Shown: positions 14,813 to 15,063 of the stretch, one piece after another | Layout: each line of letters begins with the position of its first letter | Numbering within the stretch: position 1 is the first letter of the stretch | Assembly (NCBI GenBank): GCA_943355055.1 | Contig: CALREA010000001.1 | Coordinates: 26,722-90,721 of the forward strand | Source: Candidatus Peribacteria bacterium | Lineage (GTDB): Bacteria > Patescibacteriota > Gracilibacteria > UBA1369 > UBA12463 | Reading direction: 5' to 3' | Length of the DNA stretch: 64,000 bases | The notes under the pieces: model-generated | The model's input: the letters and a program-made list of their open reading frames with translations, nothing else | Databases searched by the model: none | What the model was told of the DNA's origin: nothing | Program-made: the position numbers and the translations under genes

Positions 14813-14889
14813 AATTATATCACAAATCTCAGCTTTGTGCCGCCTTACCGTATTGCAATAATTAGCAAAAGATTTATGGCTTTGGGTCG
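14813..14889 (-). promoter_or_regulatory. promoter/operator module, copy R (inverted duplicate of 5691-5767)
   Basis: Minus-strand -10 TATAAT at 14814-14819 preceded by TGa. The palindrome is at 14821-14839. It lies 30 nt upstream of the SLT gene ATG (14783). Confidence 0.6.
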
Positions 14890-14896
14890 TGAAGAC

Positions 14897-15063
14897 TTTT
14901 CAGCTTTGTTTGGGGTTCGGTGATAAACGGTTCAGGATTATCCTTTTTGTATGGGTTATACATTCCTATACACGGGTCAGCAGACTTGTCCCTTGGGGAT
15001 GAGCAATCTTGATTAACAATGTACAACTTTGTATAACCGACCATTTTCGAAAAGATCCCTCCC
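14897..15063 (-). repeat. intergenic repeat family, copy A (contains the micro-ORF MVGYTKLYIVNQ..., 14874..15044)
   Basis: A 39-nt block (15008-15046) is 100% identical to 45898-45936. Flanking similarity includes GGTTATACA/TGTATAACC inverted repeats and the CAAAGCTGA motif. GGGAGGG lies 12 nt upstream of the ATG. Confidence 0.5.

Follow-up and report, generated by a model that had tools for sequence, protein, structure and literature searches.

The window analysed here is a stretch of 64,000 nucleotides from the genome of a Candidatus Peribacteria bacterium (positions 26722-90721 of contig C1 of the assembly called G000 below, the source genome, which comprises 1.14 Mb in 44 contigs and is 95.9% complete), an organism whose DNA is present in lake-water metagenome runs. 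Two intergenic regions of this window, one downstream of a malic-enzyme gene and the other between an aminotransferase gene and znuC, carry copies (A and B) of a short repeated element. A first-pass annotation had noticed that positions 15008-15046 of copy A and 45898-45936 of copy B are identical in 39 of 39 nucleotides, an identity that holds and for which none of 100 shufflings of the window gave any match, and it had described a repeat family with a constrained core and flanks diverged by insertions and deletions (indels). The genome-wide search that it had proposed was carried out over G000 by BLAST, pattern search and an nhmmer profile and yielded six good copies (nhmmer E-values from 1e-27 to 4e-36, the next match having an E-value of 0.5) plus one relative that lacks the core. 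The alignment of the six copies bears out that this is a genuine family of that kind. The copies, and the pairs of sequence boxes found in the two copies of the window, are the following:

14861..15063, minus strand: copy A, delimited by nhmmer and alignments (nhmmer span C1:41582-41758, window 14861-15037); on the minus strand its order is a Shine-Dalgarno (SD)-like GGGAGGG, an ATG, the box core, the spacer and the tail
45773..45950, minus strand: copy B, by nhmmer (span C1:72494-72648, window 45773-45927)
C8:5999-6144: copy C8, by nhmmer
C18:11716-11874: copy C18, by nhmmer
C27:16024-16191: copy C27, by nhmmer
C9:14740-14898: copy C9, by nhmmer
15020..15035, plus strand: box pair 1 of copy A (TGTACAACTT-TGTATA; C1:41741-41756), inside block 1 (15013-15033), which is the spacer of a promoter claimed by the first-pass annotation
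14957..14972, minus strand: box pair 2 of copy A (TGTATAGGAA-TGTATA; C1:41678-41693), overlapping block 2 (14954-14964)
45910..45925, plus strand: box pair 1 of copy B (C1:72631-72646); block 1 is 45903-45923
45874..45889, minus strand: box pair 2 of copy B (TGTGTAGAAA-TGTATA; C1:72595-72610); block 2 is 45871-45881

The divergence among the copies is distributed very unevenly. Block 1 (TACAAAGTTGTACATTGTTAA on the strand of the small open reading frames (ORFs) considered below) differs from the consensus in 2 of 126 aligned cells and block 2 (AATGTAYAACC) in 3 of 66, while the remainder of the element differs in 147 of 539 and contains many indels, and thus the copies are old enough to have diverged. 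Compared with the remainder, the Fisher p-values are 6e-13 for block 1 and 8e-6 for block 2, the cells not being independent of each other. The only indel of the core is a 27-nt insertion in copy A, and the copies that have no ATG or that bear a stop retain both blocks. Judged from this alignment, the constraint acts on nucleotides, not on codons.

The core is built from 10-bp units, GTTRTACA-NN, in direct and inverted orientation. Its 375 bases hold 17 of the 42 GTTRTACA octamers of the whole genome, spaced by 10 or 20 bp. Each block corresponds to a TGTRYA-N4-TGTRYA pair, with the two boxes 10 bp apart on the same face of the helix, and the two box pairs of a copy lie on opposite strands and point in opposite directions, with weaker boxes in between. 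Genome-wide there are 15 such phased pairs, 13 of them inside the six copies (one pair per strand per copy), whereas shuffled genomes have 3.25 on average and 7 at most. A regulon of simple palindromic sites was also considered and rejected: TACAA-N2-TTGTA occurs six times in the genome, five of them in the family, and so provides no extra sites. Resemblances to dif/Xer, integron attC, IHF, DnaA-box and LexA-box sites were considered and, being only partial in their matches, were dropped.

All the copies are intergenic and both orientations occur. Each of the six precedes the start of one gene or more by 122-171 nt (raw distances), and their neighbours are an SLT-domain gene, proA, proB, purH, znuC, an aminotransferase gene, a MerR-like gene and a gene for an MBL-fold hydrolase.

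The family was found in one species only. The 60 relatives searched, 8 congeners among them, contained no match to a 20-mer at up to 2 mismatches; copy B, compared by BLAST with the 16 genomes of the taxonomic family, gave, outside G000, only short matches with E-values of at least 0.01; and exact and degenerate pattern scans of genome, metagenome and viral contig collections, which may omit the genome itself, gave none. At the locus of copy B, the znuC promoter follows the aminotransferase stop by about 50 nt in the closest congeners G005 and G006 (82-86% nucleotide identity in the flanking genes), and the approximately 228 extra bases of G000 that hold copy B (45758-45985) are missing in both. 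In the same empty-site comparison, the G005 and G006 spacers at the locus of C18 are unrelated to the G000 spacer, and at the locus of copy A the alignment was limited to the malic-enzyme gene. Among the contigs of four DNA runs, those of the two probable source runs break within the core (45899-45918), as is usual for a repeat, and a 274-nt contig from a run of another study corresponds to 45631-45904 with no differences. Loci related through the malic enzyme were distant only (58% identity at most), some of them labelled Patescibacteria, which together with genome size and habitat would place the organism in that phylum.

A candidate binder of the boxes is encoded next to one of the copies. 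The start of the divergent gene of P0005, a protein of 179 amino acids (aa), lies 136 nt from copy C8. P0005 has Pfam matches to MerR_1, MerR and HTH_17 as well as excisionase-domain matches, and consists of a winged helix fused to a DUF4325/STAS-like half. Its AlphaFold2 model, with a mean predicted local distance difference test (pLDDT) score of 75.6, contains a winged helix for which the model predicts a BldC-like fold: the top Foldseek matches are the BldC-DNA complexes 6AMA and 6AMK (target template-modelling (TM) score 0.78-0.86, root-mean-square deviation (rmsd) 1.2-2.7 Å, 30% identity), and the next ones are RacA, MerR-family proteins and a phage Xis (Pukovnik Xis, target TM 0.72).

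A search for proteins homologous to P0005 retrieved one relative, 73% identical and 186 aa long, and the sole full-length homologue of P0005 within the genus is encoded on contig C80 of G001 (34% identity, E 7e-24). This G001 gene has CATGTGTACACA-TGTATAGT-CATGTGTACACA, with an 8-nt gap, 47-90 nt upstream of its start. In G001, TGTGTAYACA units phased by 10 bp are present at about seven loci; searched for exactly, ATGTGTACACA occurs 10 times in G001 and is absent from G000, G003, G005 and G006. These G001 loci share with the G000 family CATGTGTAG..ATGTRTA, GTTAATCA and the AAAGCTGA tail, and the G001 protein P0006 is accompanied by a TGTGTACACA array.

When the 151 genomes of the order are compared, each half of P0005 usually has its match in a gene of its own, and the two genes are adjacent: one encodes a winged-helix protein of about 250 aa, with the same N-terminal winged helix and a C-terminal part of about 190 aa, and the other a DUF4325 (STAS-like) protein of about 90-110 aa; full-length matches to the fused form were obtained in two of these genomes, G000 and G001. 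For 12 loci of homologues in other genera, we have surveyed the stretch of 60 nt that precedes the start codon. At 7 of them there are at least two TGTRYA boxes (mostly TGTATAGATT), spaced by 10 or 21 bp and overlapping a TTGCTT-N17-TATAAT promoter; four others show a different 10-bp repeat, of the TAGATTTAC type, and the last one has a lone box. Of the 12 promoters, 9 match themselves best at a period of 10, and the average in control windows is 0.01-0.13 boxes. In the congeners, the canonical genes on G001:C3 and G005:C7 have TTGTATAGTT three to four times upstream.

The canonical winged-helix gene of G000 itself (C9:~10540-11330, locus L143) has an in-frame TAG after ...RQWDK and misses about 95 middle codons, so that P0005 is the only intact member found with P0005 as a query. 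At the same locus the downstream DUF4325 gene is intact and the upstream repeats are of the TAGATTTAC type.

The repeat family, its block-wise constraint, its box geometry, the arrays upstream of homologous genes and the adjacency of gene and array in two species are all observed. Together they point to an element that would be a dispersed, non-coding cassette of operator boxes for a BldC-like winged-helix family, a reading, with predicted binding, that we hold to be about as likely as not. The core would be an array of protein-binding boxes rather than the start of a gene. A winged-helix protein of the BldC/Xis type, from a MerR-related family widespread in this order of small-genome bacteria, may bind these boxes cooperatively; members of the family carry the same kind of 10-bp-phased TGTATAG repeats on their own promoters, and P0005 is its most likely representative as a binder in G000. 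The cassette of about 150 nt would have been duplicated or mobilised to six intergenic sites, thereby placing arrays upstream of the SLT-domain gene, znuC, purH, proA, the regulator gene itself and others, where the bound protein could modulate the neighbouring promoters.

Several observations weigh against this interpretation. The Foldseek E-values of 6AMA and 6AMK (2e-3 to 8e-3) are above 0.001, and P0005 scores 23.7 bits with the NCBIfam model HTH_BldC, far below its cut-off of 77, so that it is at most a putative member of the BldC family proper. The BldC box, AATTxxxxC, is unlike TGTRYA. At the canonical loci the boxes overlap the promoter, less than 60 nt from the start, whereas the G000 copies lie 122-171 nt upstream, and the orientation of the boxes relative to the downstream gene varies among the G000 copies. 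No function is common to the flanking genes. G005 and G006, the closest relatives, do not have the element and apparently manage without it. Both genomes that encode the fused form have a dispersed box family of their own, a co-occurrence of only two genomes. Gene conversion could partly explain the conservation of the blocks, copies A and B being 31 kb apart on one contig. Finally, the genome has two other phased box pairs outside the six-copy family, in arrays of TGTATAC boxes at C22:6613-6660 and C40:6575-6605; the C22 array has four to five boxes and is located between two copies of CTGATTTTTGAAAAACTGGG.CTTTTT, upstream of an ORF of 278 aa.

The proposed operator cassette has a known parallel in BldC of Streptomyces, for which the part of the source dealing with its operators (PMC5859096) describes variable numbers of direct repeats, with the box consensus AATTxxxxC, bound head-to-tail as co-operative multimers. 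As far as that part describes BldC, the two systems have in common a small winged helix of the MerR kind, a modelled one in P0005, that does not have the MerR coiled coil, and operators made of variable direct repeats about one helical turn apart, the boxes being 10 bp apart in every copy here. They differ in the repeat itself, which in G000 is TGTRYA/GTTRTACA, and in the protein: as described there, BldC is a standalone protein of 68 aa, whereas P0005 is fused to its DUF4325/STAS-like half and the canonical genes have the C-terminal part of about 190 aa and a separate DUF4325 gene. In addition, the G000 arrays ride on a repeated cassette of about 150 nt, and binding is here a prediction.

Xis proteins and other recombination directionality factors share the fold class, as the HTH_17 and excisionase-domain matches and the Pukovnik Xis match indicate. 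Xis-type proteins bind tandem sites co-operatively. However, the G000 copies have no adjacent integrase or att site, both tyrosine recombinases of the genome being encoded elsewhere, and at the loci examined the winged-helix genes belong to a conserved two-gene module and not to prophages. Arrays of short direct and inverted boxes, helically phased and bound co-operatively, are also known from the omega repressor heptads and from ParR/parC, whose proteins have ribbon-helix-helix folds. In contrast with such iterons and heptads, the G000 arrays are chromosomal and dispersed, their candidate binder is a winged-helix protein, and the neighbourhoods of the copies showed no genes for partition or replication. 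Operators made of direct repeats are already known for MerR/BldC-like winged-helix proteins, and their dispersal as a small repeat would be the new variant here.

An alternative that we consider rather unlikely is that the family is a selfish or decaying repeat similar to MITEs (miniature transposable elements with inverted repeats), without host function, in which the blocks would be former transposase or recombinase sites or products of gene conversion. The restriction to one species, with the 20-mer absent from the 60 relatives and from the genome, metagenome and viral collections, the absence from the orthologous aminotransferase-znuC spacer of G005 and G006, the presence in both orientations and in intergenic DNA only, and the 9-bp inverted repeat GGTTATACA/TGTATAACC around the 58-bp core in copies A and B all speak for it. 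According to the sections of PMC10969869 that concern them, MITEs carry promoter-like sequences, protein-binding sites and small ORFs, and MITEs and other intergenic repeats can alter the expression of their neighbours. From what these sections state, the G000 family resembles MITEs and the Correia, ERIC and BOX elements in being short, non-autonomous, intergenic and multi-copy, and in having inverted repeats, promoter-like hexamers, protein-binding sites and spurious small ORFs. It differs from them in having six copies in one species, no target duplication and no cognate transposase found, and in that the part it conserves corresponds to the operator of a regulator family of the host. In fact, transposases of the DDE_Tnp_1, rve, TnpB and Y1 types (PF01609, PF00665, PF07282 and PF01797) gave no match in the 95.9%-complete G000, which has just two tyrosine recombinases; no target-site duplication surrounds the extra bases of locus B with respect to G005 and G006; and the inverted repeat is imperfect in 4 of the 6 copies. 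Moreover, a uniform decay would not yield a spacer with 27% divergence and indels beside blocks with 1.6-4.5%, and a gene family of the host has operators with matching boxes. The two readings are compatible, since MITE-like behaviour could be the route by which an operator cassette has spread.

Recombination between promoter modules is another plausible route of spread, since the modules that neighbour the copies are duplicated as well. The features of the window around the copies and their modules are these:

5600..5692, plus strand: core-less relative, formed by a left module in common with C8, then spacer and tail, then promoter module L
14798..14910, minus strand: promoter module L, 3' of copy A (…CACAAAGCTGAGATTTGTGATATAAT), with an inverted duplicate at 5670-5782 (inverted repeat I1, 113 nt, 83%)
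14895..14910, minus strand: tail motif of copy A (CAAAGCTGAAAAGTC)
45804..45820, minus strand: tail motif of copy B (CAAAGCTGAAATTTCAC)
15094..15115, minus strand: hairpin resembling a terminator, directly behind the stop of the malic-enzyme gene and upstream of copy A

The core-less relative is what had been described as a degenerate third copy at about 5600-5690. It is real in that it keeps the spacer, the tail and the promoter module, but it has neither the SD, nor the ATG, nor any of the core, about 100 nt that hold the three being absent. It is a mosaic whose left flank is common with C8, the same left module being found beside that copy, and whose right flank, promoter module L, is common with copy A. 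Promoter-region modules are duplicated in inverted orientation in this window not only as I1 (5670-5782/14798-14910) but also as I2-I3 (1041-1080/5673-5712 and 2875-2900/5560-5585).

With regard to the tails, the motif AAAGCTGA(A/G)ATTT recurs at 45804-45820, 14895-14910, 14830-14845 and 5740-5755 of the window and at C4:42039, C11:26431, C13:21184 and C16:313 of G000. It sits beside promoter hexamers, e.g., AAAGCTGAAATTTGACA-N17-TACAAT and AAAGCTGAGATTTGTGATATAAT, yields BLAST matches of 17-18 nt in many genomes of the taxonomic family, and in G001 is found immediately before a start codon. Long palindromes of G000 include AAAGCTAAAATTTCTGCACGTGCAGAAATTTCAGCTTT at C1:19540-19579, outside the window, and GTCTTCACGTGAAGAC at C4:2215-2245, which resembles the parS consensus; the half GTCTTCACG is present in the tail of copy A.

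The first-pass annotation had also read the plus strand of the core as a promoter, TTGATT-17nt-TATAAC, and the element could be envisaged as a portable promoter that fires toward its neighbour under the control of the box in its spacer, as in the autoregulated winged-helix promoters. The hexamers are present at 15009-15037 and 45899-45927, and they are oriented as had been stated, toward znuC in copy B and antisense into the end of the malic-enzyme gene in copy A. However, the promoter scan calls neither of them, since the second hexamer does not end in T. Across the copies this hexamer is TATAAC, TATACC or TACAAC (two copies each), never ending in T, and the -35 is TTGATT, TTAGTT or AAGATT; the hexamers are, in other words, the least conserved part of the region, and what is invariant is the "spacer", i.e., block 1. 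The layout TTGATT-AACAATGTACAACTTTG-TATAAC is, it is true, that of the canonical loci (TTGCTT, a spacer with the TGTATAGATT box, TATAAT), and in 5 of the 6 copies this strand faces a gene start 125-167 nt away (znuC, purH, P0005, the MBL-fold hydrolase and a 773-aa protein). Nevertheless, copy A is directed antisense into the end of a gene, and znuC retains a conserved promoter of its own:

45988..46017, plus strand: znuC promoter, TTGACA-18-TATGAT, with the spacer palindrome AACGCAATAnTATTGCGTT, called by the promoter scan and conserved in G005 and G006, which lack the element

We thus regard a portable promoter as unlikely. The palindrome in the spacer of the znuC promoter has the form AACGCAATA(C/A)TATTGCGTT, is conserved in G005 and G006, and is probably a Zur-type operator. 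Between this promoter and the conserved ATG (46056), G000 is about 30 bases longer (46017-46060) than G005 and G006, and its znuC upstream region is without the AGGAG that G006 has. Upstream of purH (G000 C18, locus L006 ~1600-1690), the arrangement GTGGACAG-N~20-CTCTATACTCCGCCAGGTTTGAC is conserved with G005 and G006, and this stretch may be a leader or a riboswitch.

The inverted repeats GGTTATACA/TGTATAACC had suggested alternative hairpins that would include the start codon. The repeats exist, 9 bp long and bounding the 58-bp core, perfect in A and B and imperfect in the other four copies, although the homology of the family extends past them on both sides, and the hairpins can form on both strands. 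A structured non-coding RNA on the strand opposite to the micro-ORFs, acting as an antisense or 3'-untranslated-region element, perhaps through a CCUCC anti-SD-like stretch, was therefore weighed. Two plus-strand hairpins pair in 94.8% of the cells, 7 of 7 variable pairs keep their pairing through G-U where the mirror pairs of the other strand are A-C, the folding z-scores range from -1.8 to -2.7, and a CCTCC-like sequence lies 16-30 nt downstream in 4 of the 6 copies. Against this, the covariation check found no pair changed on both sides, and shuffling did as well in 500 of 500 cases. If the best-conserved units paired in the alternative way (u2-u5), the other strand would, by reasoning, be favoured, and arm u4 is degenerate in three copies. 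The pairings are in any case an automatic consequence of boxes that repeat in direct and inverted orientation. No Rfam family was matched: at the gathering score the whole window gave two tRNAs only, and at an E-value threshold the best match in 14700-15200 was a snoRNA model with an E-value of 2.5. A covariance model run over the 151 genomes of the order retrieved the six own copies and three weak matches (E 0.02-0.06), one of which (E 0.02) is the array upstream of the winged-helix gene on G001:C80. A functional RNA is, on this evidence, very improbable.

The minus strand of the core had been taken for the start of a micro-ORF, possibly the precursor of a small protein, of a ribosomally synthesized and post-translationally modified peptide (RiPP) or of a small toxin. 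The frames exist as had been written, one being 56 aa long (14877-15044 plus stop) and the other 40 aa (45815-45934 plus stop), and GGGAGG(G) is indeed present 10-13 nt upstream of the ATG in copies A and B:

14874..15044, minus strand: micro-ORF of copy A, 56 codons, an open frame judged not to be a gene
45812..45934, minus strand: micro-ORF of copy B, 40 codons, an open frame judged not to be a gene
14973..14998, plus strand: 27-nt insertion in copy A (CGGGT-CAGCAG-ACTTG-TCCCTTGGGG), a 27-column gap in the other 5 of the 6 copies, with 46 genomic copies

If such proteins of 40-56 aa starting with MVGYTKLYIVNQ were made, they would come from A, B and C8, the only three copies that keep both the SD and the ATG (GGAGG-like sequence 10-13 nt ahead of it, frames open for 56, 40 and 47 codons, and a frame-preserving insertion in A), and the remaining copies would be pseudogenes. 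The first-pass annotation had named stops in additional copies as the observation that would show the frame not to be coding, and lost starts and a stop were found in C18, C27 and C9. C18 retains the upstream homology and its full length in nucleotides, yet it has ATC in place of the ATG and TAA at codon 12, and C27 and C9 have no ATG. These non-coding copies hold the same nucleotides equally conserved.

Nor did the coding-like pattern of substitutions stand up to counting. Over 25 aligned codons, the variable sites are distributed evenly by codon position (7/6/5 in the three copies with ATG, 12/13/12 in all six), with no third-position bias, and the synonymous/non-synonymous codon differences are 1/9 (A-B), 1/6 (A-C8) and 3/11 (B-C8). 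Toward the C terminus the frames differ: CAAAGCTGA, the conserved 3' motif, is read as CAA AGC TGA in B, ACA AAG CTG in A and AAC AAA GCT in C8. The variable Cys-containing stretch of copy A turned out to be the 27-nt insertion, a member of a second, dispersed hairpin repeat, which adds 9 codons ("SSPRDKSADP"). A Pfam search with the micro-ORF peptides gave no matches, and a profile of the three peptides searched against 1.84 billion (1.84e9) representative proteins found only an 80-aa ORF of the window itself. In addition, copy A has no promoter-like site ahead and the terminator-like hairpin lies just upstream of it, and the neighbours of the six copies are housekeeping genes, with no modification, export or antitoxin genes among them. 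The micro-protein and RiPP readings were thus not borne out, a type-I-toxin reading was dropped on the same evidence (codons, starts, Pfam, homologues and neighbours), and a small protein, largely refuted by the observations that had been named beforehand, is the least probable of the explanations considered. As read from the six sequences, the micro-ORF arises by accident, where a conserved array of boxes lies beside an SD-ATG, as it does in half of the copies. A word of caution follows for the annotation of such loci: an SD, an ATG and an open frame beside a perfectly conserved core resembled a micro-gene, and it was the other copies that revealed the conservation as non-coding.

The second repeat, represented in copy A by the insertion, has the form CCCCAAGGGAC-N4-CTGCTG-N4'-G, with sites in the window at 14973-14998, 58565-58590 and ~42078-42110. 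It occurs at 46 places of G000 with up to 3 mismatches, some of them in tandem with a 27-nt period, and 39 of the 46 fall within ORFs that are 120 aa or longer, with both strands and several frames represented. Its N4/N4' stems co-vary, with 17 different stems and 28 of the 46 fully paired (mean 6.3 and maximum 13 in shuffled stems), and A:C exceeds G:T (47 vs 11), so the strand that pairs is the complement. At 58560-58590 the 827-codon ORF of G000 has 24 extra in-frame bases with respect to G005 and G006, and a contig from another study is without the 27 nt at 42085. The repeat is restricted to the genus: the counts are 36 in G000, 32 in G006, 24 in G005, 13 in G001, 11 in G003, 3 in G004, 2 in G007 and none in G002 or G008, and 142 genomes outside the genus gave three single matches with 2 mismatches (none in the reversed control). 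A search for RAYT/Y1 transposases in G000 found none. In its in-frame location it resembles the Rickettsia palindromic elements, as the relevant portion of PMC10969869 presents them, and it is about five times shorter.

Returning to the operator-box cassette, a wider scenario can be tentatively outlined, which we hold as possible but doubtful. Members of the order would share a module of a BldC-like winged helix and a DUF4325/STAS-like partner, possibly a partner-switching pair, autoregulated through 10-bp-phased TGTATAG boxes. In G000 the canonical gene would have decayed, and the fused paralogue would have gained a regulon through an operator cassette copied before zinc-uptake, purine, proline and cell-wall genes; a congener would have done likewise, independently and with co-diverged boxes.

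Gene regulation in Patescibacteria is almost unstudied because these organisms are uncultured. If the reading proposed here is true, the family would provide a regulator-operator pair, a BldC-like winged helix and 10-bp-phased TGTRYA boxes, that is conserved across many genera and could be tested in vitro. It would also be an example of a reduced genome rewiring its promoters by copying an operator cassette, that is, of the birth of a regulon through the dispersal of an operator repeat.

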